From assembly GCA_963719225.1 (NCBI GenBank), contig CAVRAY010000001.1, positions 1,120,001 to 1,184,000 on the forward strand: a stretch of DNA of 64,000 nucleotides. Reading direction: 5' to 3'. This document shows positions 36 to 59,548 of the stretch, piece after piece; the stretch's first letter is position 1; every line of letters starts with the position of its first letter. The DNA comes from Thermoanaerobaculia bacterium (GTDB lineage: Bacteria; Acidobacteriota; Thermoanaerobaculia; UBA5066). Below the pieces are notes generated by a model. It made no database searches and was not told the DNA's origin. It saw nothing but the letters and a program-made list of their open reading frames with translations. The translations under genes and the position numbers were made by a program.

Positions 36-2129
36 ATGACGATCACGCCGGCCCAGGCCACGTACTTCGGCTTCCCCGGGACCCTTCTCTTCGCCCTGCT
101 GCTGCTCTCGGCGCTTGCCTTTTTCACGTACACCGTCTCGCGCCGGGTCCAGCTCCTCACGCTCGGCGGCTCCCGCGAAGACCGCCTCGACCGACCGCTC
201 GCGCGCCTCTGGCACATGGTCGAGTACGGGCTTCTGCAGCGGAAGATGTTCCGCGACCCGTACGCCGGCGTCTATCACGCGCTGATCTTCAGCGGCTTCA
301 TCGTCCTCCTCCTGCGCACGCTGACGCTCGTCTTCGAGGGCCTGTTTCCCGGGGCCGGCCTGCCGTTCCTTCCGGCGGGATTCTGGCGGGGATATCTCCT
401 TCTCAAGGACCTCGTCCTCGTGACGACGTTCGCCGGCGTCGTCCTCGCGCTCGCGCGCCGCCACGTCGTGAAGAAAGAGCGGCTCGATCCGTCCTTCGAC
501 GCGGACCTGATCCTCCTCCTCATCGGCTTTCTGATGGTGACGGACTTCGGCGCCGGCGCCGCGAAGATGGCGCTGGAGGCGGCGAAGACGCCCGCTTCGG
601 CCTTCGCCGCCCTCGCGGGAAACGCTCTCTGGGAGCCCCTGACCTATTCGCTCTCGAAGCAATTCTTTTCTTCTCTTTCTCCTTCTTCTCTCAACTCAAT
701 TTATTTCGGTTGCTGGTGGGCGCATCTCGTCGCGATCTTCGTGTTCGCGAACTACCTGCCGTTCGCGAAGCACTTCCACGTGATCACGGCCCTTCCGAAC
801 CTGTTCTTCGCGAAGCTCGAGCCCGCCGGGAAGATGACGACGTTCGACATCGAGAAGGCGGCCGAGGCCGAGAAGTTCGGCGTGTCGAAGATCGAGGACT
901 TCACCTGGAAGCAGAAGCTCGACATGTTCACGTGCACCGAGTGCGGGCGCTGCCGCGAGGTGTGCCCGACGCACCTCACGGGGAAACCGCTCACGCCGAA
1001 GGGCTTCATGGTGGACCTGCGCAACGCGCTCTACACGGACGCGGACGCGCTGATCGACGCCGACGCGGGCCGCGGCGACGGCTCGGCCGAGAAGGCGCTC
1101 GCGGCGCGGACGCCGCTCATCGGAGGCTGGATCGACGAGGAGACGATCTGGGCCTGCACGACGTGCCGCTACTGCGAGCACGCGTGCCCCGTGGGGATCA
1201 CGTACGTCGACAAGATCACCGACCTGCGCCGGCACCTCGTCCTCGAGAAGAGCGAGTTCCCGAAGGAGGCGCAGACCGCCTTCAACGGCATGGAGCGCCA
1301 GGGAAACCCGTGGAACCTCGCCGCCTCGGACCGCGCGGCGTGGACGAAGGAGCTGCCGTTCCCCGTCCTGACGATGGCCGAAGCGGGCGACGCGAAGGTC
1401 GACGTCCTCTTCTGGGTGGGCTGCGCCGGGTCGTACGAGGACCGGGGCAAGCGCGTGTCGCGGTCGCTCGCGCTCCTCCTCCACGAGGCCGGCGTGACGT
1501 TCGCGATCCTCGGGACCGAGGAGACGTGCACGGGCGACGCGGCGCGCCGGCTCGGGAACGAGTACCTCTTCCAGACGCTCGCGCAGCAGAACGTCGAGAC
1601 GATGAAGGGCTACGGCGTGACGAAGATCGTCACGAACTGCCCGCACTGCTTCAACACGCTCGCGAACGAGTATCCCGACTTCGGCGGCAAGTTCGAGGTG
1701 ATGCACGGGACCGAGCTCGTGTCGCGGCTCGTCACGGAGGGGCGGATCCGCCTCGTGAACGGGAAGGCGAGGTCGATCTCGTTCCACGATCCCTGCTACC
1801 TCGGGCGCCACAACGGCATCTACGACGCGCCGCGCGAGCTCCTGAACGCGATCCCTGGCATCCAGCTCAAGGAGCTGCCGAGAAGCCGCGCGAACGGCAT
1901 GTGCTGCGGCGCGGGAGGCGGGCGCATGTGGCTGGAGGAGACGATCGGGGCGCGCGTGAACCAGTCCCGTTTCGCCGAGATCGAGGCGAACGGGACCGAC
2001 GCGGTCGGCGTCTCGTGCCCGTTTTGCATGGTGATGCTCGGCAACGCGAAGACTGAGCTCGCGGGCAGGACCGAGGCGTACGACGTCCTCGAGCTGGCCG
2101 CCCGCGCGCTGCCCGTCCACCCGGCCTGA
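36..2129 (+). CDS. Membrane-bound Fe-S oxidoreductase, FadF/HdrD-like (TM domain, 2x[4Fe-4S], 2 CCG domains)
   Basis: N-terminal TM helices; CTECGRCREVCP and CTTCRYCEHACP ferredoxin motifs; WVGC...CTGD...CPHC and HDPC...CCGAGGG...CPFC CCG-type domains. Confidence 0.9.
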   Translation: MTITPAQATYFGFPGTLLFALLLLSALAFFTYTVSRRVQLLTLGGSREDRLDRPLARLWHMVEYGLLQRKMFRDPYAGVYHALIFSGFIVLLLRTLTLVFEGLFPGAGLPFLPAGFWRGYLLLKDLVLVTTFAGVVLALARRHVVKKERLDPSFDADLILLLIGFLMVTDFGAGAAKMALEAAKTPASAFAALAGNALWEPLTYSLSKQFFSSLSPSSLNSIYFGCWWAHLVAIFVFANYLPFAKHFHVITALPNLFFAKLEPAGKMTTFDIEKAAEAEKFGVSKIEDFTWKQKLDMFTCTECGRCREVCPTHLTGKPLTPKGFMVDLRNALYTDADALIDADAGRGDGSAEKALAARTPLIGGWIDEETIWACTTCRYCEHACPVGITYVDKITDLRRHLVLEKSEFPKEAQTAFNGMERQGNPWNLAASDRAAWTKELPFPVLTMAEAGDAKVDVLFWVGCAGSYEDRGKRVSRSLALLLHEAGVTFAILGTEETCTGDAARRLGNEYLFQTLAQQNVETMKGYGVTKIVTNCPHCFNTLANEYPDFGGKFEVMHGTELVSRLVTEGRIRLVNGKARSISFHDPCYLGRHNGIYDAPRELLNAIPGIQLKELPRSRANGMCCGAGGGRMWLEETIGARVNQSRFAEIEANGTDAVGVSCPFCMVMLGNAKTELAGRTEAYDVLELAARALPVHPA

Positions 2130-2161
2130 AACGGATTCGCGCGAGGGTGTAACCTTTCTGC

Positions 2162-2596
2162 ATGGCGGAGGACCCGAAAGTCCCGCGTGCGCCGACCCCG
2201 GCGGGCGGCACGCGGCCCGTACCGCGCATCGTGGGGCCCGTGGCGCCGCCCGTTTACACGGCGGGCGCGAAGCCCGGCGCGGCGCGCATCGCCTCGGAAG
2301 GGGCCGAGCCGCTCGTCACCGAAGGGATGAAGGCCCGTCGGCGCGACCTCGAGAAGAAGCGTCGCGTCGTCGCCTCGCTCCGCCAGGTCGAGGAGGAAGA
2401 AGCGACCGAACGCTGGCGGCGCGCGCGCGCCTGGATCTTCCGGCTCGTGGGCATTCTCGTCGCGCTCGGCGTTTACGCGAAGATCCAGTCGATGTACGGC
2501 AACCGGTGGCCGATGATGGCCGTGTGGATCTTCCTCGCGGTCGTCCTCGGCGTCGCCGTGTCCTGGCTGCTCTGGTACCTGGACTACTCCGACTAG
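2162..2596 (+). CDS. Hypothetical membrane protein with two C-terminal TM helices
   Basis: 144-aa ORF; TAACCT -10-like hexamer 6 nt upstream of ATG; hydrophobic C-terminal pair. Confidence 0.65.
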   Translation: MAEDPKVPRAPTPAGGTRPVPRIVGPVAPPVYTAGAKPGAARIASEGAEPLVTEGMKARRRDLEKKRRVVASLRQVEEEEATERWRRARAWIFRLVGILVALGVYAKIQSMYGNRWPMMAVWIFLAVVLGVAVSWLLWYLDYSD

Positions 2597-2886
2597 TCGT
2601 CGTCGAAGATCCCCTTCGGCTTCCCGGGATCGGCCTTCGCGCGCTCGAGCGCTTCCTTGAACGTCTTCTCGAGGATGCCGGCCTTGTTCTTCTCGCGCTC
2701 GACCGTCGCGGCGAAGAGGTCCTCGGCGCGCTCCTTGCGCCGCACGTTCTCCTTCGCGGCCTCCTCGAGCGACCCGAGCTTGTTCTTGGAGGACAGGGGC
2801 TCGTGCGACAGGACGGCCCCGGAGTCGGGGTCCACCTTCAGCGTCGAGCCGCAGTCGGGGCACAGCACGAGGAGGGTGTCGCTCAT
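2593..2886 (-). CDS. Small hypothetical protein with N-terminal CPDCG zinc-knuckle and coiled-coil tail
   Basis: CPxCG..L.VD motif followed by charged helical region; stop overlaps the convergent gene. Confidence 0.75.
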   Translation of the reverse strand: MSDTLLVLCPDCGSTLKVDPDSGAVLSHEPLSSKNKLGSLEEAAKENVRRKERAEDLFAATVEREKNKAGILEKTFKEALERAKADPGKPKGIFDDD

Positions 2887-2993
2887 GTCCGGGGGGAATT
2901 ATCCTCCGAACGTGAATTCCGAAGAAGGTACGGACTGGAAGAAGCGGCTGAAGGCGCTGGGAATCGTCAGAAAGAGGAAGAAAGGGAAGAAGA

Positions 2994-3030
2994 GAGAAGA
3001 TTCTCTTAGAAGGGAAGAGGGGAAGGGCGG
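2994..3030 (+). repeat. Copy of the dispersed purine-rich motif (34/37 identical to 39383-39419)
   Basis: GAGAAGATTCTCTTAGAAGGGAAGAGGGGAAGGGCGG. Confidence 0.8.
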
Positions 3031-3127
3031 CGCGGCCGCAGGCGTCCCGCATCGAAGCGAGGCGCCGGCGGCAGTCCCTCTTTCATTCGAAGAAAACCCC
3101 GGTGGTTCTCTTCGGACCTTACAGAAA

Positions 3128-3475
3128 GTGAGAAGCGGACAGGAAGGCGAAGACATCGCCTGCGCCCTACTAGCAGAGAATTCTCTCCTCGTCCTCGATC
3201 GAAATGTCCGGTACCGGGACGGGGAGATCGACATCGTCGCCCGGGACGGGGAGACGACCGTCTTCATCGAGGTCAAGCGCCGCCGGGACGCGGCGCTCGG
3301 CACGCCGGCCGAAGCCGTGACGCGGACGAAGCGCGCGCGCGTGTTGCGGGCCGCCCGCCGCTGGCTCGCGGCGCACCCTTCGCGGTCGGGCCTGGTGCGC
3401 TTCGACGTCGTCGCCATCCAGGACGATTCCCCCGACGTCGAATGGCTGCGCGGGGCGTTCGACGCGTCACGGTAA
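3128..3475 (+). CDS. yraN: YraN (UPF0102) family PD-(D/E)xK nuclease-like protein
   Basis: G..GE..A...L, RN.R...GEIDIVA, FIEVK, RFDVVAI motifs; start uncertain (GTG 3128 or ATG 2885 in the same frame). Confidence 0.85.
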   Translation: MRSGQEGEDIACALLAENSLLVLDRNVRYRDGEIDIVARDGETTVFIEVKRRRDAALGTPAEAVTRTKRARVLRAARRWLAAHPSRSGLVRFDVVAIQDDSPDVEWLRGAFDASR

Positions 3476-3485
3476 ATTGGAGCTC

Positions 3486-3517
3486 AAAAAACGGGGCCCG
3501 GCAGACGCCGGGCCCCG
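3486..3517 (-). terminator. Intrinsic terminator downstream of tRNA-Gly
   Basis: 11-bp stem CGGGGCCCGGC/GCCGGGCCCCG, 4-nt loop, followed by T6 on the minus strand. Confidence 0.85.
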
Positions 3518-3527
3518 GATTCGACTA

Positions 3528-3602
<75 letters not shown>

Positions 3603-3659
3603 TCAGGAGTTGCGGAGAATAAGGGACCGCTTCGGAACCGTCAAGGACGCGGAGCGGTC

Positions 3660-4070
3660 CTACGCGCGCTGTGCGCGCGGGTCGCGCGGGTTGGGCGTGG
3701 GCGAGAGGATCTCGCGGGGGCCGGGCGTCGGAGTCGGGACGATCTTGTCCCCCGGATTTCCGCCGGGAGTGCGGCTGATCCCCGGCGTCCTGAGCGGATC
3801 GAGCCTCGGGATTCCCGGCGTGCGCGAACCGCGCAGCTCGGGAGTCGGCATCGGCGTTGGGATGATCTCGCGCGCGGGACTCGCGGGCGGCGTCCCCTCC
3901 GGTCGCGGCGGAGGAGTCGTCTCGGGAGTGAGCTCGAGCCCCGGCACGGCCGTCGGCACAGGCGTCGCCGCGGGCGGAGGCACGGGAGTCGGCGGGGGCG
4001 TCGGCTCCTGCATCAGGCCCGCGATCGCGCTGCCCAGAGTCCCGGCCAGGATCAGCGCTTTGTAATTCAT
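3660..4070 (-). CDS. Pro/Thr-rich low-complexity secreted protein
   Basis: MNYKALILAGTLGSAIAG signal-like N-terminus, then repeated PTP/TPxP motifs; GGGAAGG SD-like upstream. Confidence 0.65.
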   Translation of the reverse strand: MNYKALILAGTLGSAIAGLMQEPTPPPTPVPPPAATPVPTAVPGLELTPETTPPPRPEGTPPASPAREIIPTPMPTPELRGSRTPGIPRLDPLRTPGISRTPGGNPGDKIVPTPTPGPREILSPTPNPRDPRAQRA

Positions 4071-4548: not shown

Positions 4549-4570
4549 GAGTCCTCCGATCCCGGCCCGA

Positions 4571-5571: not shown

Positions 5572-5593
5572 CCGACCCCAAGAAAAATCCTTC

Positions 5594-8500
5594 CTACCAG
5601 AGCAGGTGGACTCCGAGCTGTACCTGGCGCGGGTCGCCGAGGCCGCTCTGAACGGTGCCGTCGAAGTTGAAGAGCAGTGACGTCGACTCCGGCTTCCTGA
5701 GGTTCTTGCTGTTGAAGAGGTTGAACACCTCGACGATGGGCTCGATCGTGAGCCCTCCGGCGGCGAACGCACGGGAGATCCTGAGATCGAGCGAGTTGAA
5801 CTGGTTGTCCTTGCGGCCGAGGTTGCGCGTCGTGACGGAGCCGTCCGGGTTGATCCGGTCCGTCGGCGGCGACAGAACCGAGTCGGCGCCCGTCCCCGTG
5901 ATCGACTTCGGCTGCGCGGAGCGGTACGACCAGCGCGCGTTCACGTTGACCTCGCCGGGCGCCTTCCAGAGGACGTAGGCGTTCACGCGGTGCCGCTGGT
6001 CGCGGTCCGAGTAGCCGTACTCGGCGTCGAGGTCCGTGACCTTCGCGTAGCGGAGCGTGAAGGGGTCGCGCTCGTTGTCGTCATCCGACTTGTCCCACGA
6101 GAGCGTGTAGAACGCCTGGAACTCGAAGTTGTTCGTGAAGCGCCTGATGAGCCCGAGCGTGATCCCGTTGTAGACGCTGTGGCCCGTCGACTCGACCGTC
6201 GTGAGCGAGCCGACGCCGTTCGTGCCGTCGGCGCCGAGGCCCGTCGACCAGGGCGAGCCGAGGAGAGGGTCGTTGCGGTCGATGAACCGCGTGATGTTGA
6301 CCGTGTGGGCATAGTTGTACTTGAGCGAGACGGCGACGTCGGGCGCGACCTCGCGTTCGATCGCCAGAGCGGCGCTGTACGTCCGCGGGTTCTTGAAGTC
6401 CTTGCTGAACACGTACACGCCCGGGTGGTCGGGGACGGCCGGCAGGGAGGAGAGCGGAATGAGGTTCGGATACGCGGGAACCGGCAGGCCGAACGGCGTC
6501 AGGAAGCTCGCGCGGAACACGTCGTACCCGAGGCTGCCGTTCGTCGAGCGCGTCGAGGCGAGGTTCAGTCCGGGCACGCGGCCCGAGAAGATACCGGCGT
6601 TCGCGCGCAGGACCGTCTTGCCGTCGTTCTTCGGGTCGAACGTGATCCCGAGCCGGGGCTGCCACATCGAATAGTCGGACGGGATCTTGCCGTCGGACGG
6701 GAATTCCTGGCCCTTCGAGGTCTTGCCGATGAAGCCGGCGAAGAAGACCTTGTCGGGCGGCGTGATCGGGTCAGGCTCGATCTGCGCCTCCCAGCGCAGG
6801 CCGACGCTGATCGTGAGGTTCGGCAGCGGCTGCCATTTGTCCTGGAGGAACACGGCCGGCTCGTGCTGGACGATGTCCTGAGTGCCGGCCTCGTCGATCG
6901 TGAGGCCCGGTCCCGGCACGTGCTGCAGGTAGAGCGCGACGGGCCCCGTGATCGACGCTCCCGCCGGGCAGTTCCCGGTGTTGTTCGACGTGCCGTCCGA
7001 GCACTCGACGTACAGGTTGTTCTTCGTGAAGTTCAGGAATCCCTGGACCGAGCCGAAGATGACGCGGCCGTTCGCGAAGCCCCGGAACGTCTGCGCCGCG
7101 TTCGTCCGGTTGTACTCGACGCCCGCCTTGATCGTGTGGCTGCCCATGAGGAACGTGACGTTCTCGTTGAGCTGAAGGCGCGTGTCGTGGTAGTCGACGG
7201 GGATGAAGAACGGCTCGCCGAACCGGTAACCGTGGGCGAAGTCGACACCCGTGTCGGGGAAGGGGCGCTCGCCGCCGGGCACCGTCGGACCCTCGTACGG
7301 GCGAGGCCTGTCCTCGCGCGCCCACTGGAAACGAAATTCGTTCAGGAGGTTGCTCGTGAAAGTCGAGTTCAGAGAGCCGCTGCCGGCGTTCGAGTTCACG
7401 TCCTCGATCGCGTTCGAGCTGCGCGCCCATGGATCCACGTCGAACGTGCCGTTCACCTGCTCGGACCACGTGTAGTTGTACTTGAGGGAGAAGAGGTGCT
7501 GCTCGCTCGCCTGCCAGTCGAACTTCGCGAGGAAAACACGCGCGTCGTTCGTCCGGTCGATCGGACCGTTCTCGTTCGGTGCGCCGACCGAGGCGAAGTA
7601 CGACACGAGAAGAGGATCGATGCGGTTCGGGTCCGTCTGCTTCGTCGAGCGCCCGCGCTGGTAGTCGAAAGCCGTGAAGAAGAAGATCTTGTCCTTCACG
7701 AACGGCCCGCCGAGCGTGAAGCCGGCCTGGAGCTGGTTCGAGTCGAACTTCTCGGCGGAGCTGCCGTCCGGCTTGACGGCGGCCGAGGACAGGCTGTCGT
7801 TCTTGAAGTAGCCGTGGACGCTCCCGTGGATCTCGTTCGTGCCGGACTTCGTCACGACGTTCACGAAGCCGGAGCTCGCGCGCCCGAACTCCGCATTCGC
7901 GCCGTCGGAGACGACCACGACCTCCTTGACCGCGTCGAGGTTGAACGTGAAGGCTGGCCGCTGCCCGCCTCTCTGCTCGCCGAAGAACGGATTGTTGTAG
8001 TCCGCGCCGTCCACCGAGACGTTGTTGTTGATGCCCTTCTGACCGTTCACCGAGAGCTCGTCGCCGTCGGGGCCCTGGACGATCGTCACGCCGGGCGTCA
8101 GCTTCGTGAAATCGAGGTAGTTCCGGCCGTTGTTCGGAAGGCCCTTGATCGCGGCTGAGTCGATCTGCGTCGAGCCCTCGGTCCGCGTCGTCTCGACGAC
8201 GGGAGCCGCGCCGGTCACGGTCACGGACTCAGCCCTCTGGGAGAGCCTGAGTGCGAGTCCGGTGAGGTTGATCGTCTGGCCGACGCCGAGGTCGAGTCCC
8301 TCGCGGACGAGCGTCGTGAAGCCCGCGAGGCTCACGGTCACCCGGTAGGGGCCGAGAGGCAGGGCCACGCCGCGGAAGCGGCCGTCGGGGCCCGTCGTCG
8401 TCGCCTTCTCGAAGTTCGTGGCCGTGTTCCGGAGCGCGACCGAGGCTCCCGGAAGAGGAGCACCGGCCTCGTCGGAGACGGTGCCCTCGATGACGCCCGT

Positions 8501-11119: not shown

Positions 11120-11992
11120 TCAGCCGATCCCGTCCTCCAGCATCTGGAGAAGGTAGCGGCCGTAGTCGCTCTTCATCTGCTTCGCGAGCCGGGTCACGTC
11201 GGCCGCCGAGATCCAGCCGGCCTTGTGAGCGATCTCCTCGGGGCACGCGATCTTCAGGCCCTGGCGGGCTTCGATGGCCTGGATGAAGTTCGAGGCCTGG
11301 AGAAGAGCCTCGTGCGTGCCCGTGTCGAGCCAGGCCATGCCCCGGCCGAGGAGCTCGACGTGGAGGTCGCCGGTCTCGAGGTAAGCCCGGTTGACGTCCG
11401 TGATCTCGAGCTCGCCGCGCGGCGAAGGCTTGAGCGCAGCCGCGATGTCGAGCACGCGGTTGTCGTAGAAGTAAAGGCCCGTGACGGCGTAGCTCGAGCG
11501 CGGCTCCTTCGGCTTCTCCTCGAGGCCGATCGCGCGCCCCTTCGCGTCGAACTCCACGACTCCGTAGCGCTCGGGGTCGAGCACGCGGTAGGCGAACACG
11601 GTGGCGCCCGCCGCGCGGGAGGCCGCGCGCTGGAGCATCTCCGGCAGGCCGTGGCCGTAGAACAGGTTGTCGCCGAGGGCGAGCGCGACGCCGTCCTCGC
11701 CCACGAACGAGCGCCCGATGAGGAATGCCTGCGCGAGGCCCTCGGGTTTCGGCTGCGTCGCGTAGGAAATCCGGATGCCGAACTGCGCGCCGTCGCCGAG
11801 GAGGCGCACGAATCCCGTCTCGTCCTCGGGCGTCGTGATGACGAGGATGTCGCGCAGGCCTGCGAGCATCAGCGTCGAGAGCGGGTAATAGACCATGGGC
11901 TTGTCGTAGACGGGGCAGAGCTGCTTGCTGACCGCGAGCGTGAGCGGATAGAGGCGCGAGCCCGACCCGCCCGCGAGGATGATTCCTTTCAC
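11120..11992 (-). CDS. rfbA: Glucose-1-phosphate thymidylyltransferase
   Basis: [42 protein letters not shown]; GTG start overlaps rfbB stop. Confidence 0.96.
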
Positions 11993-13089
11993 GCGCGGAC
12001 TCCGAGACCGAGACGCTCGCGTCCATAGTTTTCCGCCTGGACGACGGCGCACCACTCCGGGTGATCGACGTACCACCGCACCGTCCGAAGAAGACCTTCT
12101 TCGAATGAGTAAGAGGGGCTCCACCCGAGCTCGCGGCGGATCTTCGAGGCGTCGATGGCATACCGGCGGTCGTGGCCCGGCCGGTCTGGAACGAACGTCT
12201 TCAGTTCCGAATAGCCTCTCAGCACCTTCGAAGAAATCTTTTCCGAGATCTTCTCGTTCTCTTCGAACGGCACGGTTTGCTCCAGCGCCGCACAGAGCGC
12301 GTCGACGACCTGGAGGTTCGTCCTCTCGTTGCCGCCTCCGATGTTGTACTTGCTCCCGGGCGCGCCCCTCTCGAGGACGAAAAGGATGCCCCTGCAGTGG
12401 TCCTCGACGTGGAGCCAGTCGCGTACGTTGCCGCCGTCGCCGTAGATCGGAAGGGGCTTCCCCTCGAGCGCGGTCAGGATCATGAGCGGAATGAGCTTTT
12501 CGGGGAACTGGAACGGCCCGTAGTTGTTCGAGCAGTTCGTGAGGAGAGTCGCGAGGCCGTACGTCTCGCGCCAGGCGCGGACGAGGTGGTCCGCGGCGGC
12601 CTTCGACGCGGCGTACGGCGAGTTCGGGGCGTACGGCGTCTCCTCGGAAAAGAGCCCGCTTTCTCCCAGCGTGCCGTAGACCTCGTCGGTGGAGACGTGG
12701 AGGAAGCGGAAGCGCTCCGCGTCGGCCGGGCGAAGGGCCGAGACGTGGGCACGGGAGGCCTCGAGGAGCTCGTACGTGCCGTTCACGTTCGTTCTGACGA
12801 ACGCCCCGGGCCCGTCGATCGACCGGTCGACGTGCGTCTCGGCCGCGAAGTTCAGGACGGCGCGAGGCCGGTGAGCCTCGAAGACCGCCTTCATAGCGGC
12901 GGCGTCCGCGACGTCCGCCTTCACGAACGCGAAGCGCGGGTGCTTCTCGACGTCCGCGAGGCTCGCGCGGTGACCCGAATACGTCAGCTTGTCGACGACG
13001 ACGACGCGGTCGGGCGTGTCGGCGAGCGCGAGCCGCACGAAGTTCGAGCCGATGAAACCGGCCCCGCCGGTGACGACGATCGACTCCAT
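11989..13089 (-). CDS. rfbB: dTDP-glucose 4,6-dehydratase
   Basis: [49 protein letters not shown]. Confidence 0.96.
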
Positions 13090-31260: not shown

Positions 31261-32440
31261 GTGCGTGCGCCTCGAGCGCGACGGCGAGGTTCGGGTCGTT
31301 CGCCGGAATCAGGGACCGCGTTCCGAGCTCGCGCGCGAACGCCGCGAGCCAAAAGCCGAAGAGCGCGACGGGCGTCGTGAGGTCCAGCCAGTGGACGTTC
31401 AAGCTGCCGGGATGGAACGCGGGAGAAGCGAGCCAGAAGAGATCCACCCACCGCATGAAGAGGAGGAGGCCCGCGGCCCACGCCAGCTTGCGGATGTCGC
31501 GCTTGAAATCTCGAGAGAGGAGGAAGACGAAAGGCACGGCGAATTGAAAGACGGCGAGGAACACCGACAGGGCTCCCCAGAGGCCGTTGAGGCGGGAATG
31601 GAAGAAGCCGATCTCCTCAGGCAGGTTTCCCGACCAGATGATGATGAGCTGCGAAACCGCGAAGTACGCCCAGAGCATCGTGAAAGCCAGAAGGAGGTTT
31701 CCGTGGTCGTGCACGTGGCGGGGCTGGAGGACGCCGCGCATCGGCCCCTTTCGCACGAGGAAGAGGCTGATGAGGAGCGTGAACGACATGCCCGAAATGG
31801 CCTGGCCGCCGACCACGTACATGCCGTAGATCGCCGAGAACCAGTGAGGGTCGAGCGACATGAGGAGGTCCACGGAGGCGATCGTGACGAGGAGGCAGTA
31901 GACGACGAGGCCGGGAGCGGCGACGAGCTGCATCCGGCGCTCGAGGCCCGGCACGGGCGCGTCGTCCTGCTTTTTCGAGAGGCGGCTCAACGCCTGCGCG
32001 AGGACCGTCCAGAGCAGCAGGCAGATGGCGAGCCGTACCGCGAAGAACGCCGGATTCATGTAAGGCGCGCGGTGCCGCAGGATCTCATCGCCCGCGACGC
32101 GGGCCGGATCGGCCCACGGGTAGAGATGCTTGAGCCCGAAGAGGAGCGGGACCGCGAAGAGCGCGACGAGCGGCAGCGTGCGCGCCGAGGCCTCGAGGAT
32201 CCGGCGGATGACGAGCCCCCACGCGCCGCCCGACATGTGGTGGAGCATCGAGATCGCAAGGCTTCCGAGGGCGATGCCGAGGACGAAGACGAACGCCACG
32301 AGGTACGAGCGGTAGAACTGCGCGGGATTCGCGATGAGGCCGGCCGCCGAGACGACGCCGGCGAGCGTGCCGGCGACGAGGCTGCGCCGCCCGAGGGCGG
32401 CGAGATCGGCAAGGGGCGGAGCCCAGCGGGATTCGGTCAT
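31253..32440 (-). CDS. actF: Alternative complex III subunit ActF (NrfD-like membrane protein)
   Basis: About 10 TM; D..MSL.PHWFS.IYG, WAYF..SQ..IIWSGNLPEE. Confidence 0.9.
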   Translation of the reverse strand: MTESRWAPPLADLAALGRRSLVAGTLAGVVSAAGLIANPAQFYRSYLVAFVFVLGIALGSLAISMLHHMSGGAWGLVIRRILEASARTLPLVALFAVPLLFGLKHLYPWADPARVAGDEILRHRAPYMNPAFFAVRLAICLLLWTVLAQALSRLSKKQDDAPVPGLERRMQLVAAPGLVVYCLLVTIASVDLLMSLDPHWFSAIYGMYVVGGQAISGMSFTLLISLFLVRKGPMRGVLQPRHVHDHGNLLLAFTMLWAYFAVSQLIIIWSGNLPEEIGFFHSRLNGLWGALSVFLAVFQFAVPFVFLLSRDFKRDIRKLAWAAGLLLFMRWVDLFWLASPAFHPGSLNVHWLDLTTPVALFGFWLAAFARELGTRSLIPANDPNLAVALEAHAHG

Positions 32441-33108
32441 TTTGTTTCGGAAGAAGACGAAGGAAGAGAAGAATTCTTGGAAGGTGAATGTCCGGAGGCG
32501 GCGGGTTTCGCCTCGCCCTGGCCCGCCACGAGAGCGGCTTTGTCCAGCGCCACTCGATCTTCCTTTCCAAGGAAATCTTCGGGCATGTGCCGGGAGGCCT
32601 GGAGGGTGCGGATCCACGCGACGATCGCCCAGCGGTCTTCGGGCGTCACCTGCACGGCATAGCCAGACATCTGGCCGAAGCCGTTCGTGATGACGTCGAA
32701 GAAGTAGCCCGCGCGCTCGGCTCTGAGTCGCTCCACGTGGTAGGAGGCCGGCTGCTTGAAGCCGCGGTGGACGATCATGCCCTGTCCCTGGCCGGTCCGT
32801 CCGTGGCACGGCGAACAGAAGATGTTGAAGCGCTCCTGGCCGCGCAGGAGAAGCTCGCGCGTGACAGGCACGGGGATCTCCTCGACGAACTTGCCGTCGG
32901 GGCCCTGGCCGCGCGAGAGAGCCGCGTCGCCGCGGAGGAACCCGCGCGCGACGGTGCCCTCGGGCAGCGCGCGTGCCGAGGCGCCGTCCGAAAAGAACGT
33001 GCTTTCGCGGAACGGCTTGATCTTGGCCTGGTGGTGCATGTCGTTCCGGCAGCCCGAGAGCGCGAGCGCGAGAACTGGCGCGGCGGCGAGGAGGAAGCTG
33101 CGGCGCAT
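32437..33108 (-). CDS. actE: Alternative complex III monoheme lipoprotein ActE
   Basis: LSGC lipobox, DM..Q.K, CSPCH, M..YA..V..EDRWAI. Confidence 0.9.
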   Translation of the reverse strand: MRRSFLLAAAPVLALALSGCRNDMHHQAKIKPFRESTFFSDGASARALPEGTVARGFLRGDAALSRGQGPDGKFVEEIPVPVTRELLLRGQERFNIFCSPCHGRTGQGQGMIVHRGFKQPASYHVERLRAERAGYFFDVITNGFGQMSGYAVQVTPEDRWAIVAWIRTLQASRHMPEDFLGKEDRVALDKAALVAGQGEAKPAASGHSPSKNSSLPSSSSETK

Positions 33109-35095: not shown

Positions 35096-35100
35096 TCGCC

Positions 35101-38009
<2,909 letters not shown>

Positions 38010-38964: not shown

Positions 38965-40674
38965 GTGACTTCCCGTTTCACTCGCTCGCGCTTCATGGCG
39001 CCCGTCGTCGTGCTGTCGATCGTCCTCGCGCTCCGCGCCGCCTCGCTCACCTCGCTCCTTGCCACCCCGCTCGCGTCGTGGCACCTCTGGATGGAGACGG
39101 ACGAGCACGCCTACGTCGAGTGGTCGGCCCGCCTCGCGGCGGGGAACTGGGCGGACGTGCCCGCGTACCGGGCGTACTTCAACTGGCAGAAGGAGTACGG
39201 CCCGCCGGAGACGTGGGAGCGCTGGTACCAGAAGAACGCGTACTATGCCGGGCCGCTCTATCCCTACGGCCTCGCTGTCCTCAGAAAGATCTTCGGCTCG
39301 CCTTTCCTGCCGGCGCGCGTTCTGCAACTTCTTCTGGCGTGTCTCGCATCCGCATTTCTTGCGGCGGCAATTCAAGGAGTCGGAGAAGATTTTCCTAGAA
39401 GGGAAGAAGGGAAGGGCGGGCGTGCGGTCTTGTGGTCGGCGATCGCCGGAGGCGTTCTCTACGGAGCGTACGGCCCCCTCGTCTTCCACGATTTCTTCCT
39501 TTACCGCGACGGCCCCGTCGCGCACCTCTCGACGCTCCTCGTGGCGTTGCCGCTGATAGCACGGGGAGGGAGCGAAGGGAAGATTTCTTCGAATGGTGAA
39601 GAGGGGAACGGCAAGCGGCGGGGATGGGCCGCGCTTTTTCTGGGCCTGCTGGGGGGCGCGGCAACCCTGATGAAGCAGACGGTGCTTCCCCTCGCGCTCT
39701 TCTCTCTCTATTCACTTTCAAAGAAATCCGAGTCCCCCGGCGGCCGCGGACGCGGCCGCTCCCTCCTCTTCGGACTCATCGGTCTCGCTCTTCCTCTCTC
39801 CGTCCTCTGCATCCGAAACGTCTCCGTCGGCGTCCCGCCGCTGACGTTCGACACGCGCCAGTCGATCGGCCTCGCGTGGGGAAACGGGTTCGGAGCCGAC
39901 GCGACGACGAATCCGGCGCCGGGAATGAAGGAGATCCTGGAGGAGGCCGGCGGGTCCACGTCGAAGACGGCGAAGCTCGTCCTCGCCGGCTACCGGGATC
40001 AGCCGCTCGAGCTGCCGAAGCTGTTCCTGAAGAAGACCGCGACTTTCTTCAACGTCTACGAGGTCCCCGACAACGCGAACTTCTACTTCTTCCGCGACCG
40101 GCTTCCGCTGCTGAAGGTACTGCCCGTCTTTCCCTGCCTCCTCGGCACCGGACTGGTCGGGCTGTTCGCCGCGCTCGCGCGCGGCGTGCTGAGAAAGGAA
40201 GAAGGGCTTCTGGCGGCCGTCGGCATCGTCGGGCCGCTCGCGGCGTGCTTGCTGGTTCAGACGACGTCCCGATATCGCGTGGGAGCGGCCGGGCCACTCG
40301 CGCTCGGAACGGGTCTCTTCTTCCTCTTGACCTTCGAAGAAATACGCGCGCGCCGGCAGCGAAACGCTTTCCTTCTGGCTGCGGCCGCGGGAGCACTGTC
40401 TCTCGTGACATTGCTTCCCTCGGTGATCCCGACGCGCAAGCACCGCTTCTCGGATACGCTCGTCTACGCGACGATCGTCGAGGCGCAGGAGGGGCCGGCG
40501 GCCGCGGCCGCCGAAGTGCGCCGGTATCTCGATGAAGGAGGCGATGACGAAAGCCGGGCAACCGGCATCGCGGCCCTACGCTACTGGGCGGAAAGCGGCG
40601 ACCGCTCGGGGTCGCTCGTCGAGCCCCCCGGCATCGCGCCGCCGGAGCGGCGCGTGCGGAAGAAAGAGAATTAG
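38965..40674 (+). CDS. Polytopic membrane protein, GT-C (PMT/ArnT-like) glycosyltransferase-like
   Basis: TM1 followed by DE..Y..W; PLYPY.LA, RVLQ, RN......, GN, E.PDN, RYR motifs typical of GT-C/PMT_2-like proteins. Confidence 0.7.
   Translation: MTSRFTRSRFMAPVVVLSIVLALRAASLTSLLATPLASWHLWMETDEHAYVEWSARLAAGNWADVPAYRAYFNWQKEYGPPETWERWYQKNAYYAGPLYPYGLAVLRKIFGSPFLPARVLQLLLACLASAFLAAAIQGVGEDFPRREEGKGGRAVLWSAIAGGVLYGAYGPLVFHDFFLYRDGPVAHLSTLLVALPLIARGGSEGKISSNGEEGNGKRRGWAALFLGLLGGAATLMKQTVLPLALFSLYSLSKKSESPGGRGRGRSLLFGLIGLALPLSVLCIRNVSVGVPPLTFDTRQSIGLAWGNGFGADATTNPAPGMKEILEEAGGSTSKTAKLVLAGYRDQPLELPKLFLKKTATFFNVYEVPDNANFYFFRDRLPLLKVLPVFPCLLGTGLVGLFAALARGVLRKEEGLLAAVGIVGPLAACLLVQTTSRYRVGAAGPLALGTGLFFLLTFEEIRARRQRNAFLLAAAAGALSLVTLLPSVIPTRKHRFSDTLVYATIVEAQEGPAAAAAEVRRYLDEGGDDESRATGIAALRYWAESGDRSGSLVEPPGIAPPERRVRKKEN
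39383..39419 (+). repeat. Copy of the dispersed purine-rich motif (34/37 identical to 2994-3030)
   Basis: GAGAAGATTTTCCTAGAAGGGAAGAAGGGAAGGGCGG. Confidence 0.8.
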
Positions 40675-55784: not shown

Positions 55785-56128
55785 CCCGGGGAAGCCGGGG
55801 AGCGCTCGCGCTCTCCGGCTGCCTCCTTCTTCTCGTCTTCACTGCAGGGGATTCGTCCGCGGGCTGGCCTCCGAGTCAAAAACTCCGCGGCGCGAAAGCG
55901 CCGGAGGCGGCGCAGACCAGGGGCGCGGTCTTCACGGCCGAGATCCGCCCGATCCTTTTGGCTCATTGCGCGCCGTGCCACGAGCCCGGCGGGAAGATGT
56001 ACGCGAGGCTGCCGTTCGACGACCCCTCGGTCCTGTCGTCTCACGAGCCGGGCGTGAAGAAGCGCCTCAAGGGCGACGACCTCAAGGCCTTCGAGCGCTG
56101 GCTCGCGATGGCTCCGGAAAAAAGCTGA
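55781..56128 (+). CDS. Secreted monoheme c-type cytochrome-like protein
   Basis: Signal peptide; F..EIRPIL..HCAPCH resembles the planctomycete cytochrome c N-terminus; ATGA-coupled to degP. Confidence 0.65.
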   Translation: MTRGSRGALALSGCLLLLVFTAGDSSAGWPPSQKLRGAKAPEAAQTRGAVFTAEIRPILLAHCAPCHEPGGKMYARLPFDDPSVLSSHEPGVKKRLKGDDLKAFERWLAMAPEKS

Positions 56129-56750
56129 GGCGAGGGCGCGTCGCCTCGCGGAGCTTTTCCGCGAGGGTTCGTTTGCACCTCTCGCAGAAGCCCGACGCTT
56201 CGTCCACGGATTGGATGCTTCCGCCGGCGTCGTTCATGAGGCAGTGACTCGCCGCGCAGTGGGGAAGGCCGAGACTGTGCGCGAGCTCGTGCGCCGCCAC
56301 GCGGCCGAGCCGCGTTTCGAAGACGGATTCGGAAACCTCCCCGGGGCGGAGGTGATTGGCGTGCAGGCGATACGTGGAGATCACGCCCGGCCGTCCCCCG
56401 AGCTTCGCGACTCCGAAGACGCCCCAGTCCGCGACGTCGCCTTTCGGCGCGGAGATGTCCCGCGCGGTGATGCCGATGACGTGCGGGAACCTCGGCCCGG
56501 TCGTGCGATCCAGAAACGCGACGAGGTCCTCGGCCCGATAGCGACGCCGCGGCGCGTAGTACGCCGACTCGGGCAAGGGCTTCGTCGCCAGCACCGTGAC
56601 CTTCAGCCCGAAAAAGGTGCTCAGCTTCCGAGCGAGGTTCTCGACGACGCGCTCGCTCACCTGGCCGAGCGGCTGCAATGCGACCCCGGGAGAGGCGGGA
56701 ATCGACGGGCGAGAGGCCAGCGTGACCGCAAGAATGCATGAGGTCAACAC
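56082..56750 (-). CDS. Archaemetzincin-like (peptidase M54) zinc metalloprotease
   Basis: HELAHSLGLPHC....CLM......CERC; overlaps the convergent gene by 47 nt. Confidence 0.85.
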   Translation of the reverse strand: MLTSCILAVTLASRPSIPASPGVALQPLGQVSERVVENLARKLSTFFGLKVTVLATKPLPESAYYAPRRRYRAEDLVAFLDRTTGPRFPHVIGITARDISAPKGDVADWGVFGVAKLGGRPGVISTYRLHANHLRPGEVSESVFETRLGRVAAHELAHSLGLPHCAASHCLMNDAGGSIQSVDEASGFCERCKRTLAEKLREATRPRLSFFPEPSRASARRP

Positions 56751-56846
56751 GTCTCGCTATTCCCCCGGACCCGTAGGACGACGTTGGAGCCAGAAAATTT
56801 TATCGGCTCTTTCCGCGACCCGCAAGACCTCTTTGCGGAAAAAAGG

Positions 56847-58064
56847 TCAGCTGGAGGCGAGGGCGGCGTCCAGGGGCGAGAGATGCTTCGCAGGACCTTC
56901 TGACGGTGAGGCGGACTCCGCTGCGAAGTCGTGCCGGTTCGCGCGCAGGACGTGGCCGCCCGCGTCCCTGAGGACGCGCTCGTAGAACGCGTCGCGCTCG
57001 AAGGGCTCGCGGCCGGCGCCGCGAATCATCCGCTCCATCTCGGCGCGCGAAAGGCCGGACTCGGTCTTCGCGCCCGCCGCGTGCGTGATCGTCTCCTCCG
57101 TCACGGTGCCCACGAGGTCGTCCGCCCCGAAGTGGAGCGCCACGGGCGCGAGCTTCTCGCCGATCTGTACCCAGTACGCCTTGACGTGCTCGAGGTTGTC
57201 GAGCATGAGTCGCGCGACGGCGATGACCTTGAGATCCGTGAGACCCGTCGCGGGCGGGAGATTCGGGAGCTGCGTCTCCTCGGGATGGAACGCGAGCGGG
57301 ATGAACCCGAGAAATCCGCCCGTCTCGTCCTGCAGCTCGCGGACGCGCACGAGGTGGTCGACGCGCTCCTCGACGGTCTCGACGCTGCCGTAGAGCATCG
57401 TGACGTTCGTCTTGACGCCGTTCTCGTGGCAGAGGCGCGCGACCTCGAGCCAGCGCTCTCCGGAGATCTTGTCGCGGCAGATGACGTCGCGGACCCGCTT
57501 CGCGAAGATCTCGGCGCCCCCTCCGGGGCAGGAGTCCATGCCGGCGGCCTTGAGGTCACGAATGACGTCGACGACGTCCCGCTTGCCGACGCGCGCGATC
57601 CAGTCGAGCTCCACCATCGTCCACGCCTTGAGGTGCACCCCCGGAAAACGGGCCTTCAGCGCGCGGAGGAGGTCGAGGTACCAGGAATACGGGAGAGACG
57701 GGTGGAGCCCGCCCACGATGTGGAGCTCGGTGATCCCGTCGTGCCAGCCGGCGGCGGACTCGGCGACGGCTTCCTCGATGGACATGGTGTATCCGCCGTC
57801 CACGCCGGGCTTGCGCGCCCACGCGCACAGCGCGCAATCCACCCAGCAGAGGTTCGTGGGGTTCAGGTAGCGGTTCACGTTGTAGTAGCCGACGTTGCCG
57901 TGCCTTCTCTCGCGTACGAAGTTCGCGAGCGTGCCGACGCCGAGCACGTCGGGGGACGTGAACAGGGCGACGCCGTCGTCGAACGAAAGGCGGCGGCCTT
58001 CCGCGACCTTTTCGGCGATCGGAAGGAGCGGCGAGCCGGCGAATCGCTCCAGAAGGACGCTCAA
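56847..58064 (-). CDS. mqnE: Aminofutalosine synthase (radical SAM)
   Basis: NPTNLCWVDCALC, ELHIVGGLHP, PGGGAEIF, HVKAYW, FGADD; TTG start overlapping the upstream stop. Confidence 0.9.
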   Translation of the reverse strand: MSVLLERFAGSPLLPIAEKVAEGRRLSFDDGVALFTSPDVLGVGTLANFVRERRHGNVGYYNVNRYLNPTNLCWVDCALCAWARKPGVDGGYTMSIEEAVAESAAGWHDGITELHIVGGLHPSLPYSWYLDLLRALKARFPGVHLKAWTMVELDWIARVGKRDVVDVIRDLKAAGMDSCPGGGAEIFAKRVRDVICRDKISGERWLEVARLCHENGVKTNVTMLYGSVETVEERVDHLVRVRELQDETGGFLGFIPLAFHPEETQLPNLPPATGLTDLKVIAVARLMLDNLEHVKAYWVQIGEKLAPVALHFGADDLVGTVTEETITHAAGAKTESGLSRAEMERMIRGAGREPFERDAFYERVLRDAGGHVLRANRHDFAAESASPSEGPAKHLSPLDAALASS

Positions 58065-58309
58065 TCCGGCATGTCACCCTTGTCGATGGGGCGTGAAAGT
58101 GCGGGCGGGTTCTGCGCCTCGGACACGGCCTTCGGGTTCAGCTCGTCGTACCGTCCCGCGTAGCGGGCGTAGCACGACGCGCAGTAGCGCGAATCAGGCG
58201 TGAACTTGAAGTCGACCACGGTGCCCGAGGCGAAGAGCTCGTCGCGGGTCTCGCCGCAGGCGTCGCAGATTCCCCTGAGGCGGAGGCGTTTCCAGACGGG
58301 TCCTGACAT
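58061..58309 (-). CDS. Small CxxC...CxxC zinc-finger-like protein
   Basis: CDAC and CASC; TAAGAT 6 nt upstream of ATG; stop overlaps mqnE start. Confidence 0.7.
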   Translation of the reverse strand: MSGPVWKRLRLRGICDACGETRDELFASGTVVDFKFTPDSRYCASCYARYAGRYDELNPKAVSEAQNPPALSRPIDKGDMPD

Positions 58310-58318
58310 GCCGGGATC

Positions 58319-59548
58319 TTACCCGGCGGCGCGCGCGCGGGGAAACCGCAGAACGAGGAGGACCGCCGCGGCGACTCCGGCGATCGCCGCTCCCGCCAGG
58401 AACGCCGTTTTCGAGCCGGCGTGCTCCCAGATGAGGCCGAAGCCGACGCTCGCGGGCAGGGCGGCGAAGCCCATGAGGCCGTTCATCCAGCCGAATGCCC
58501 GCCCGCGCGACGCGGCGGGCACGAGGTCCGCGACGAGCGCGCGCTCCGTGCCTTCCGAAAGCGCGTAGTAGATCGAGTACACCCCGACGAGCCCGACGAG
58601 AGGCCACGGCGCGGACACGAACGCGAACCCGACGTAGCAGAGCGCGTAGAGCGTCCACGCGACGAGGAGCAGCTTCCGGCGTCCGAAGCGGTCCGAAAGG
58701 CCGCCGCCCCACATCGACAGCGCGGCCCTCACGGCGTTCGAGAACGCCCAGAGGACCGGCAGCCACGCGGCGGCGATTCCGATTTCCTTCGCCTTGAGGA
58801 GGAGGAACGTGTCGGACGACGCGGAAAGCGTGAAGAACGCGATCAGCCACGCCGCGCGCCAGAAGATCGGAGGAAGAACGGCGGCAGCGGCATCGCTCGA
58901 GGCGCCCTCGGGGCTCCCTGCCCTGTTCACCTTCAAAGAAATCTTCTCTTCTTCTTTTCTTTCCCTAACCCCGAATGCCAGGACCAGCAGCGATAGCCCG
59001 GCCGGAATGGCAGCGAGGAGGAAGACCATCTTGAAAGACAGTCCCATGAGGCCCATCAGTCCCGCCGCGAGGAGCGGGCCGAGGACGGCTCCCGCGTTGT
59101 CGAAGGCGCGGTGGAGGCCGTAGGCCGCGCCGCGCCGCTCTCCCGAGGCGACGGCCGCGATCATCGTGTCGCGGGGCGCCGTGCGAACGCCCTTGCCGAT
59201 GCGGTCGACGAAGCGGATGAAGACGACCACCGGCCACGTCGGCGCGAGGCCGATCAGGGGCTTGGAGAGGGAAGAGAGGGCATAGCCGATGAAGACGAGC
59301 GGCTTCTTCGCCTTCGCGCGGTCCGTCAGCCGGCCCGAGAGGATCTTCGCGAACGACGCCGCCGTCTCCGCGACGCCTTCGATCCATCCGAGGGCCATCG
59401 CGGGCACGCCGGTCAGCGTCGCGACGAACGCCGGCAGGAGCGGAACGATCATCTCGGAGGAGGCGTCGGTCAGGAACGAGACCCATCCGAGCCGCACGAC
59501 GACCGGGGGGAGACGTGCACCGGCGGGCGGAGCAGAATCGCTCCGCAT
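58319..59548 (-). CDS. MFS transporter
   Basis: VSFLTDASSEM, DRIGKGVRTAPRD, G.LSDRFGRR; 12-TM pattern; start inferred. Confidence 0.9.
   Translation of the reverse strand: MRSDSAPPAGARLPPVVVRLGWVSFLTDASSEMIVPLLPAFVATLTGVPAMALGWIEGVAETAASFAKILSGRLTDRAKAKKPLVFIGYALSSLSKPLIGLAPTWPVVVFIRFVDRIGKGVRTAPRDTMIAAVASGERRGAAYGLHRAFDNAGAVLGPLLAAGLMGLMGLSFKMVFLLAAIPAGLSLLVLAFGVRERKEEEKISLKVNRAGSPEGASSDAAAAVLPPIFWRAAWLIAFFTLSASSDTFLLLKAKEIGIAAAWLPVLWAFSNAVRAALSMWGGGLSDRFGRRKLLLVAWTLYALCYVGFAFVSAPWPLVGLVGVYSIYYALSEGTERALVADLVPAASRGRAFGWMNGLMGFAALPASVGFGLIWEHAGSKTAFLAGAAIAGVAAAVLLVLRFPRARAAG
58921..58972 (-). repeat. Copy of the dispersed purine-rich motif inside the MFS central loop
   Basis: Minus strand GAAAGAAAAGAAGAAGAGAAGATTTCTTTGAAGGTGAACAGGG, encoding RERKEEEKISLKVNR. 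Confidence 0.7.

Follow-up and report, generated by a model that had tools for sequence, protein, structure and literature searches.

Facing pairs of an asymmetric DNA motif in two genera of Thermoanaerobaculia: candidate sites for a chromosome-organising protein

Why do unrelated genes of a GC-rich bacterial chromosome carry the same short purine-rich patch? The question was raised by the window, the whole 64,000-nucleotide stretch of Thermoanaerobaculia DNA analysed here. Its first-pass annotation described a motif dispersed through coding genes and proposed a binding site for a chromosome-organising protein, an uptake-type signal or the scar of a small in-frame mobile element. To our knowledge, few DNA signals are strong enough to reshape a proteome, the classic case being uptake sequences. 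The host of the present motif is an uncultured bacterium.

A lopsided motif and its facing pairs

The motif is about 28 bases long and asymmetric, with a core TTCTTNGAARG and purine-rich flanks. Eight positions within TTCTTNGAA carry 1.4–1.95 bits in a matrix trained on the genome, and a further G lies two bases past TTCTTNGAA; the positional consensus is thus real and exceeds mere purine skew. We found no published description of the motif in a literature search. All 12 main copies reported at first pass lie at the coordinates and on the strands given there, scoring 13.8–29.9 bits on this matrix, and the host peptides quoted for them are correct (Table 1). The two copies called weaker at first pass part ways: the one at 35101-35125 is a minus-strand site of 31.6 bits and among the strongest, whereas the one at 5578-5596 reaches at best −4.4 bits and does not match the motif.

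Genome-wide, 799 sites score at least 14 bits in 4.75 Mb, against 136 in a reversed-sequence control, and sites occur at about 1 per 6 kb all round the chromosome. Coding DNA contains 514 sites of at least 16 bits compared with 28–52 in codon-preserving shuffles; three within-gene synonymous shuffles gave 34, 38 and 52, and two codon-usage resamplings gave 13 and 17 with 0 facing pairs. Predicted genes hold 587 of the 799 sites, but the 212 sites in the 517 kb between genes are about three times denser per base. The motif is kept even within essential genes, and it biases protein sequences toward the strings FLEG, SKKS and FEEI.

The copies are dispersed genome-wide, as first described, but they are not independent and mostly form facing pairs. 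A facing partner (at least 8 bits) lies 30–300 bp downstream of 512 of 665 strong sites, against 15 in a divergent control, and 258 of 283 plus-then-minus neighbours are no more than 300 bp apart, compared with 10 of 283 minus-then-plus neighbours. Coding DNA contains 155 such pairs compared with 1–3 in the three synonymous shuffles. Slices of relatives show the same geometry, with a facing partner for 43/46 sites in G019, 21/26 in G007, 24/27 in G017 and 5/5 in G174. Spacing has a floor at about 63–70 bp (10 of 280 independent pairs fall below 63 bp) and a mode at 74–79 bp (about 76 bp), with 43 of the 280 at 73–79 bp. Among independent pairs with perfect cores, 32 of 61 are spaced at 74–77 bp within an allowed range of 58–88, and the fraction of pairs at 73–79 bp climbs with arm strength from 11% through 16% to 23%.

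Both arms lie in a single gene in 214 of 327 pairs, and the spacers are mostly ordinary gene sequence, native and mostly unique; pairs of 74–78 bp lack a conserved midpoint sequence. The arms of one pair fit the consensus and resemble each other no more than arms drawn at random do. Among the 15 joints listed, all on contigs of relatives, no strand change indicated inversion of the segment between arms, and in 24 of 24 genomes the rfbB spacer lies the same way round. Retention is similar for unpaired sites (45/55) and for paired ones (110/129; p=0.66), so the pair may not be the sole functional unit. Within the window, the 3007/3090 pair is probably intergenic, upstream of yraN and not within it, a placement that follows from a Pfam match beginning near 3146, where the gene call is weak.

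Table 1. Motif sites in the window, with scores on the genome-trained matrix
Position	Strand	Feature	Bits	Context
642..669	-	unpaired site	19.3	antisense, Fe-S oxidoreductase gene 36-2129 (CCG/Fer4); G019 counterpart has facing partner ~75 bp away
2995..3022	+	left arm	29.9	facing pair with centres 83 bp apart; arm missing from G007
3075..3102	-	right arm	23.5	partner of 2995..3022
12089..12116	+	left arm	21.6	130-bp pair; antisense (SYSFEEGLL) in minus-strand rfbB-like dehydratase gene 11989-13089
12117..12215	.	rfbB pair spacer		native conserved coding sequence
12216..12243	-	right arm	23.5	rfbB pair; sense, KISSKV, length-variable loop
32466..32493	+	left arm	21.9	91-bp pair, C-terminal tail of cytochrome c gene 32437-33108 (minus strand, alternative complex III cluster); 32442-32558 missing from one related contig
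32554..32581	-	right arm	13.8	partner of 32466..32493; sense, EDFLGKE
35098..35125	-	unpaired strong site	31.6	overlaps stop codon of 35101-38013 gene; additional facing arm in G007
39384..39411	+	site	29.8	gene 38995-40674, without Pfam match; 325 bp to nearest facing site
39577..39604	+	left arm	26.2	132-bp pair in 38995-40674 gene
39706..39733	-	right arm	28.5	partner of 39577..39604
40322..40349	-	site	17.0	antisense, LTFEEI; facing partner centred at 40191 is weak (5.4 bits)
58921..58948	-	site	27.0	sense, KISLKV, central loop of MFS transporter gene 58319-59548; unpaired; G019 has facing site nearby

Maintenance, origin and chromosomal distribution

The rare A/T third-codon positions within the core are retained in relatives at 60/64, 75/83 and 54/65 (83–94%), compared with 309/858, 484/1330 and 160/870 (18–36%) far from sites in the same genes. 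Together with the lack of any RNA-strand signature, this upholds the original view that the constraint acts on DNA. Sites hold their position across species and across two genera. In the rfbB-like gene, each arm occurs in 23 of 24 genus genomes, the left one with its rare codons fixed, and the spacer sequence also occurs in site-free outgroup homologs. A search of relatives, which the first-pass annotation had proposed, found the motif in 36 of 36 genomes of two sister genera of Thermoanaerobaculia and in 0 of 26 other genomes of the family. Motif-positive genomes carry from 1 to 235 strict copies, and this roughly 100-fold range is an odd fit for an essential structural role.

Substitution at positions where the protein tolerates change gave rise to most sites. 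Aligned coding gains lack an indel in 37 of 57 cases and are at least 3 aa longer in 13 of 57, and some lineage-specific sites accompany insertions of 20–80 bp in intergenic DNA, tails and loops. Of the 25 lineage-specific sites, 21 belong to a pair, and 13 lie opposite a site that G000 already has (background 4%). Genes with an ortholog in G082 contain 34 sites in 127 kb, compared with 3 in 52.5 kb for genes without one. Site density is highest at 50–70% ortholog identity and lowest at 80% or more, and amino-acid identity is 46% locally at sites vs 63% gene-wide. Accumulation is seen in vertically inherited, moderately conserved genes, a pattern that uptake drive also predicts.

Plotted against origin and terminus, a further check proposed at first pass, site density roughly doubles near dif, and there is no strand polarity, 361 of 733 sites lying on the leading strand. 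Contig C1 contains 25.3 sites per 100 kb within 800 kb of dif vs 14.4 beyond (p=4e-14), strict sites in G231 number 51 near and 38 far (p=7e-4), and core genes hold 51 in 231 kb near vs 21 in 228 kb far (p=5e-4); the genomes showing this gradient have many sites in common and are not independent. The gradient is 2–4-fold overall, only about 2-fold among core genes, and not clear in G174 of the sister genus. GC3 dips slightly near dif (0.866 vs 0.896), so part of the gradient may be mutational, and a chimeric contig underlies some of the origin-side geometry. In G000, dif itself is flanked by two pairs.

A putative chromosome-organising reader and its rivals

We propose, at a probability of about 0.5, that these are paired sites for a DNA-bridging, chromosome-organising protein, which makes the chromosome-organising site the best of the three options offered at first pass, given the gradient toward the terminus. 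The asymmetric double-stranded signal would be recognised by a clade-specific protein, two bound units of which could bridge, loop or clamp the intervening DNA and organise the chromosome, chiefly its terminus half, perhaps in compaction or segregation. Each bound unit would extend about 35–38 bp toward its partner, setting the minimum and preferred spacing, whereas longer spacings may act through looping that needs no helical phasing. Single sites would bind weakly enough to persist and to seed new partners. No reader protein was found among the candidates examined, namely a dif-linked ParB paralog, an HTH-TPR protein and MatP. The ParB paralog does not track the motif: it occurs in 121 of 121 genomes of the class and the motif in only two genera, and its recognition helix does not vary among 32 aligned sequences from genomes with and without the motif. 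The HTH-TPR candidate is present in 58 of 62 family genomes, and MatP gave 0/5 genomes in a search whose control matched in E. coli.

More tentatively, and with the odds somewhat against it, the motif may be a newly evolved code for chromosome architecture in the two sister genera. Each of the several hundred convergent pairs would load a two-headed protein that clamps or loops at least ~70 bp, 76 bp being the preferred unit; the pairs would follow an origin-to-terminus gradient and rewrite even essential proteins such as tRNA synthetases. Such a sequence-positioned nucleosome-scale or convergent-anchor unit would have no described bacterial counterpart.

An uptake-type signal is still a serious contender, ranked below the chromosome-organising reading and, in our judgement, rather unlikely. 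Under such molecular drive, of the kind proposed for uptake sequences, DNA with facing pairs would be favoured in uptake, packaging or export and then recombined, with better matches spreading although no benefit is needed at each locus and with the pair rule supplied by a two-site receptor or processing enzyme. Known pairs of the uptake sequences USS and DUS are short terminator stems. The present pairs, unlike USS/DUS, are mostly intragenic and grow denser toward dif, and drive alone predicts neither the spacing floor, the 76-bp mode and the facing-only geometry in genes nor the terminus gradient among core genes. It does account for the wide copy-number range and fits hundreds of copies that lack strand bias, lie in many genes and several frames, arise by point changes at tolerant positions, favour poorly conserved genes and positions, are scarce in acquired and highly conserved genes, and accumulate after gene acquisition. 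This signature equals that of USS (Pasteurellaceae) and DUS (Neisseriaceae), clade-specific asymmetric motifs with hundreds of copies on both strands (PMC2817400). The competence gene comEC is present in G000 and in 26 of 28 genus genomes, but it is equally frequent in motif-negative genera (56 of 62 family genomes overall). A ComP_DUS search gave 0/63 matches, its control also being without a match.

It is improbable that the pair is the substrate or self-mark of a two-site motor or nuclease, loaded from both sides, with Chi-like protection or processing between the arms. Type III restriction-modification sites, the nearest model, are 5–6 bp long. The motif, by contrast, spans ~28 bp and is enriched rather than avoided in its host, which would be expected to lose cleavage sites rather than gain them. 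What does fit is the geometry of asymmetric, facing sites at flexible, phase-independent spacing, since type III enzymes require two inversely oriented asymmetric sites (PMC6158743 and PMC3333885). Against such an enzyme also stand the featureless midpoint of 74–78 bp pairs and the lack of replichore polarity of the Chi or KOPS kind. The 16 pair matches in IMG/VR, at 24–59% GC, look like chance and thus give no sign of phage mimicry, the clade's own phages not being identified.

The in-frame scar proposed at first pass would make the arms terminal inverted repeats of a small inserting element (a REPIN, a MITE or a Rickettsia-type in-frame element). This is highly improbable overall, and a mobile-element origin is largely refuted for coding sites. 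MITEs and Rickettsia-type palindromic elements are insertions over their full length when compared with orthologs; here the spacers are native and conserved and most aligned gains lack an indel, the 20–80 bp insertions and the lengthened gains being the exceptions that speak for a relic. Inverted doublets, hundreds of copies, a preferred spacing of 70–110 bp and lineage restriction are shared with REP, BIME and REPIN sequences, and the ~76-bp doublets resemble REPIN doublets of 71 and 110 bp (PMC3116915). REPINs with RAYT are almost wholly extragenic, however, whereas most of our pairs sit inside one gene, arose by substitution and have arms that are not selected to pair. RAYT is missing from the motif-rich G000 and G019, with Y1_Tnp absent from both and present in motif-poor G082, motif-free G130 and G174, and the sites persist over two genera.

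Scarcely credible is an RNA or single-strand hairpin, with arms pairing in mRNA or exposed DNA into a stem that a nuclease or an RNA-binding protein would recognise: any inverted pair can fold, purine-rich then pyrimidine-rich arms give duplexes near −26 kcal/mol, and before paralog removal partners resembled each other in their 9-base cores slightly more than expected by chance (7.72 vs 7.60±0.03), but with the kinase family removed duplex energy is −26.2 for real vs −26.0±0.3 for shuffled partners and the variable base is identical in 125 vs 116±7.5 of 310 pairs, the mRNA strand shows no excess of G-U over A-C (706 vs 678), sense and antisense stability are equal, one rfbB arm varies with no compensatory change in the other, and a spacing floor near 65 bp is opposite to hairpin preference.

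Relation to described chromosome signals

The first-pass annotation drew analogies to parS, matS and Noc/SlmA sites and missed the convergent pairing with a minimum and preferred spacing, which we know of in none of these. The half-site letters TTC...GAA resemble those of parS and NBS half-sites, and the clade has a second ParB-family gene adjoining dif; the motif differs in its three-base rather than four-base centre, asymmetric flanks and pairing, and is limited to two genera whereas the second ParB is class-wide. Chi and ter are polar chromosome motifs and, like KOPS, share with ours a short asymmetric form and DNA-level selection inside genes. Orientation here is set by the partner site and not by the replichore, which KOPS orientation follows (PMC3603311). 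In the same paper, matS is described as a 13-bp palindrome at ~1 per 49 kb, confined to Ter. Our sites are similarly dispersed and terminus-biased and are read as putative docking sites for chromosome structure, but they are asymmetric, paired, far denser and spread over the whole chromosome, in genomes without a MatP match. Strong gyrase sites, a 130-bp motif with phased 10-bp G/C variation that is under-represented in Ter (PMC6379681), were rejected because the motif spacers show no clear phased G/C pattern.

These failed membership tests, together with the pair geometry, set the motif apart through a rule absent from the compared families, namely how two sites are oriented and how far apart they lie. 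Should a protein recognise ~76-bp facing pairs, these would define a new bacterial chromosome-structure unit or a new two-site DNA-transfer machine. The range of copy numbers in the 36 motif-positive relatives, set beside the 26 motif-free genomes, is a natural experiment in which phylogenetic profiling should be able to find the reader gene and the spread of a DNA code through coding sequence can be measured. The bias that the motif imposes on protein sequences also matters for annotation and phylogeny of the group.

A facing-pair motif and its taxonomic range

We identify an asymmetric ~28-bp signal throughout the source genome (G000), an assembly of 4.75 Mb and 68% GC in two contigs (C1 and C2). 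All 12 main copies reported by the first-pass annotation were found in the window as it described them, and the motif dominates the most over-represented 10- and 12-mers in a k-mer scan of the whole genome. The consensus from a genome-trained matrix is GAGAAGATT-TTCTTNGAARG-KGAARRGGG; at ≥14 bits the genome has 799 sites and its reversed sequence 136, and at ≥20 bits the counts are 604 and 31. The family is missing from the top list of the repeat finder because its copies are degenerate, and Rfam at gathering threshold returns one tRNA and nothing else across the window. Genes were predicted with a Markov-model finder of our own, which called 3939 genes (89% coding), so that gene borders are approximate; 587 of the 799 sites lie inside predicted genes, 301 sense and 286 antisense. 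The excess persists under the codon shuffling that had been proposed as a check: codon-preserving nulls, which keep motif-shaped amino acids, retain 13–52 of 514 strong coding sites and 0–3 of 155 pairs. The k-mer scan also returned a separate over-represented word, TTGATATCGTTAG, which with its neighbours occurs in 15–21 copies.

Sites face one another. Gaps of ≤300 bp separate plus-then-minus neighbours in 258 of 283 cases and minus-then-plus neighbours in 10 of 283; a facing partner of ≥8 bits lies 30–300 bp from 512 of 665 strong sites, with 15 in the divergent control. A looser cut-off yields 327 distinct pairs at a median spacing of 118 bp, 214 of them within a single gene. With orthologs and paralogs removed, 10 of 280 pairs are <63 bp apart and 43 fall at 73–79 bp, perfect-core pairs concentrate at 74–77 bp (32 of 61), and 136–138 bp is a possible second peak (13 of 280). 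Pair spacing displays no helical phasing at 10–11 bp or 10.5-bp periodicity, no conserved sequence was found at the pair midpoint, and orthologous pairs can differ in spacing. Slices of four relatives (G019, G007, G017 and G174) have the same facing geometry. Most simply, the asymmetry, hard minimum, sharp optimum and unphased longer distances suggest two putative protein units on facing sites. Each unit would project ~35–38 bp inward from its own site, and the two would make contact at ~76 bp or form a bridge over a loop.

The strict pair pattern occurs at no fewer than 119 loci in GTDB, and the 80 records listed are all titled Thermoanaerobaculia, Acidobacteriota or Acidobacteria. Among 300 class genomes drawn, a strict 15-mer has 68–218 copies in all 16 genomes of the motif-rich genus, 32 in G174 of the sister genus and 0–3 in the other 283. 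Within the family it is present in 28 of 28 genomes of the motif-rich genus (34–235 copies) and in 8 of 8 of the sister genus (1–32), and it is absent from all 26 genomes representing eight other genera. Unpublished G025 and G196, on which no conclusion rests, are among the background rows of several comparisons, including the 300-genome draw and those of rfbB and the ParB paralog below. Motif-poor G082 has one perfect pair, and G315 and G316 have a single strict site each; these do not fall at a common locus. De novo detection found no other paired motif in 180 kb of motif-free G130 or 400 kb of G082, with a detector that also missed the sparse G174 motif. Of 16 pair matches among phages in IMG/VR, none is at host-like GC. 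The facing-pair motif is a real, selected, clade-specific DNA code that fits none of the families tested. For comparison we used parts of PMC2817400, PMC6379681, PMC3603311 and PMC3116915. The portions of the literature covered by topic, on Thermoanaerobaculia repeat motifs, on Acidobacteriota repetitive elements and on head-to-head motifs within coding sequence or near the terminus, do not describe the element; its novelty could still be affected by subscription journals or by repeat tables in genome-paper supplements.

Chromosomal placement and candidate readers

The first-pass annotation had proposed a binding site for a chromosome-organizing protein and a plot of density against origin and terminus. 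With landmarks located by dif, parS and KOPS patterns, site counts climb toward the terminus: the origin bin has 36 and the terminus bin 137. On C1 alone there are 25.3 sites per 100 kb within 800 kb of dif versus 14.4 beyond. Genes that have outgroup orthologs show the gradient as well (51 sites in 231 kb versus 21 in 228 kb, a comparison based on 400 kb of origin-side outgroup DNA), as does intergenic DNA (6.4 versus 1.0 sites per 10 kb). It is also seen in G231 and G019 and is unclear in G174, these genomes being kin that share sites. Site orientation in G000 has no replichore polarity. Genes without an outgroup ortholog have fewer sites, head-on genes slightly fewer (1.33 versus 1.68), and ribosomal-like codon use, a crude proxy, gives 0.9 versus 3.2 sites per 10 kb across quintiles. 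One contig of G019 (C2; loci L254 and L189) places dif only ~730 kb from dnaA although the assembly spans 3.9 Mb; either the replichores are very unequal or the contig is misassembled.

Because density rises toward the terminus and pairs surround dif, we propose, at a probability of roughly one half, that the motif serves chromosome organization or segregation. The placement agrees with the earlier proposal. None of the candidate proteins tested as its reader is supported. The motif core resembles parS and Noc half-sites. A second ParA-ParB pair adjoins dif in 15 of 15 family genomes aligned, and its ParB paralog, whose helix-turn-helix is invariant and whose C-terminal domain is distinct, is present in 121 of 121 class genomes (loci L261 and L282–L311). 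A role for this paralog as reader is not supported, because it occurs across the class with the same recognition helix whether or not the motif is present. This terminus-linked ParAB system may be undescribed; the literature covered on ParB paralogs at dif in Acidobacteria contains nothing on it. A motif site lies upstream of the second parA-parB operon, ~2.3 kb upstream of the end of the parB paralog, in 7 of the 9 loci compared within the genus (L283–L289). MatP, the REP/REPIN transposase RAYT and an HTH-TPR protein likewise fail as readers; GyrA and ParC are encoded in all 5 genomes searched for them, and comEC is present throughout the family. No convincing candidate emerged when 848 basic cytoplasmic proteins were screened against ~1.1 Mb from the sister genus, roughly a quarter of the genomes concerned; 180 had orthologs there, and 28 were taken to Pfam.

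Coordinates of landmarks and associated loci in G000 and the window
Feature	Coordinates	Observation
dnaA and parS-like site	C2:326-334 kb	
dif-like site	C1:2.0376 Mb	Close to GC-skew maximum
dif-side parA-parB (L261)	C1:2037865-2039524	
Tandem kinase array	C1:2290737-2319827	About 10 Ser/Thr kinase genes of 550-940 aa
N-terminal extensions	C1:2111466-2112368; C1:2101491-2102933	Motif supplies new extensions of predicted proteins
Inverted copy of C2:6000-223000	C2:610000-801000	~75% identity; probably a related species' DNA joined into the contig, fitting a 6.2% contamination figure
Weakly called gene	window:60236-61063	Faint sub-cut-off HrpB1_HrpK Pfam match; likely a TPR-type protein
Respiratory genes	window:26428-38666	Alternative complex III, then cytochrome c oxidase; ordinary for the group

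Turnover, constraint and alternative origins

Relatives share most sites with G000: 57 of 73 in G007, 64 of 84 in G017 and 71 of 96 in G019. Among 25 sites specific to a relative, 21 belong to pairs and 13 lie opposite an existing G000 site (background 4%). The manner in which sites accumulate matches uptake-sequence drive, an account that we regard as unlikely. Retention is similar for unpaired sites (45 of 55) and paired sites (110 of 129), which opposes a strict pair model. That the sites serve a two-site motor or nuclease is, in our judgment, quite improbable. Pairs common to the sister genus lie in alaS, alr, rpmC and kinase genes and beside mutS, with gene names read from sequences. Nine kinases of the tandem array carry a 93-bp pair of sites at one shared position in the kinase domain (EEFFEGEE, YSFEEI), and the kinase family totals 39 sites in 151 kb.

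The suggestion that constraint acts on DNA rather than protein is borne out: within the core, G007, G017 and G019 retain 94%, 90% and 83% of A/T third-codon bases, compared with 36%, 36% and 18% far from sites. A relic of a mobile element is very doubtful. The in-frame scar envisaged by the earlier annotation is not supported for coding gains against motif-poor orthologs, where 37 of 57 aligned sites show no indel and 13 are ≥3 residues longer; the remaining 7 are neither, 22 more sites lie outside the alignment and 11 are shared. At no-indel sites protein identity is 46% versus 63% gene-wide. In intergenic DNA and gene tails, arms are present or absent together with 20–80 bp indels. Sequence may also be copied from site to site: long shared stretches are slightly in excess, 19 sites sharing ≥30 bases versus 0 simulated, paralogs included. 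Collapsed core-to-core forms number 0–1 per pattern in the genome. In the rfbB-like dehydratase gene, the spacer of the 130-bp pair is native sequence of the catalytic region. Taken singly, either arm occurs in 23 of 24 genus genomes; both occur in 22, and neither occurs in 6 outgroup homologs, which are only ~50% identical. An RNA stem is scarcely credible, as true partners pair no better than shuffled ones, the mRNA strand shows no preference for G-U over A-C, and stems do not differ in stability between sense and antisense. The motif is a DNA signal, neither hairpin nor insert.

A nucleoside phosphorylase-like gene has the N-terminal extension MKKEKKKISSKGKRGERR; its G082 ortholog is without such an extension. 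In two relatives (L024 of G020 and L025 of G008), rfbB has an apparent frameshift at a G run adjoining the antisense arm. Sequencing errors can cluster at modified bases, and both frameshifts are probably long-read homopolymer errors.
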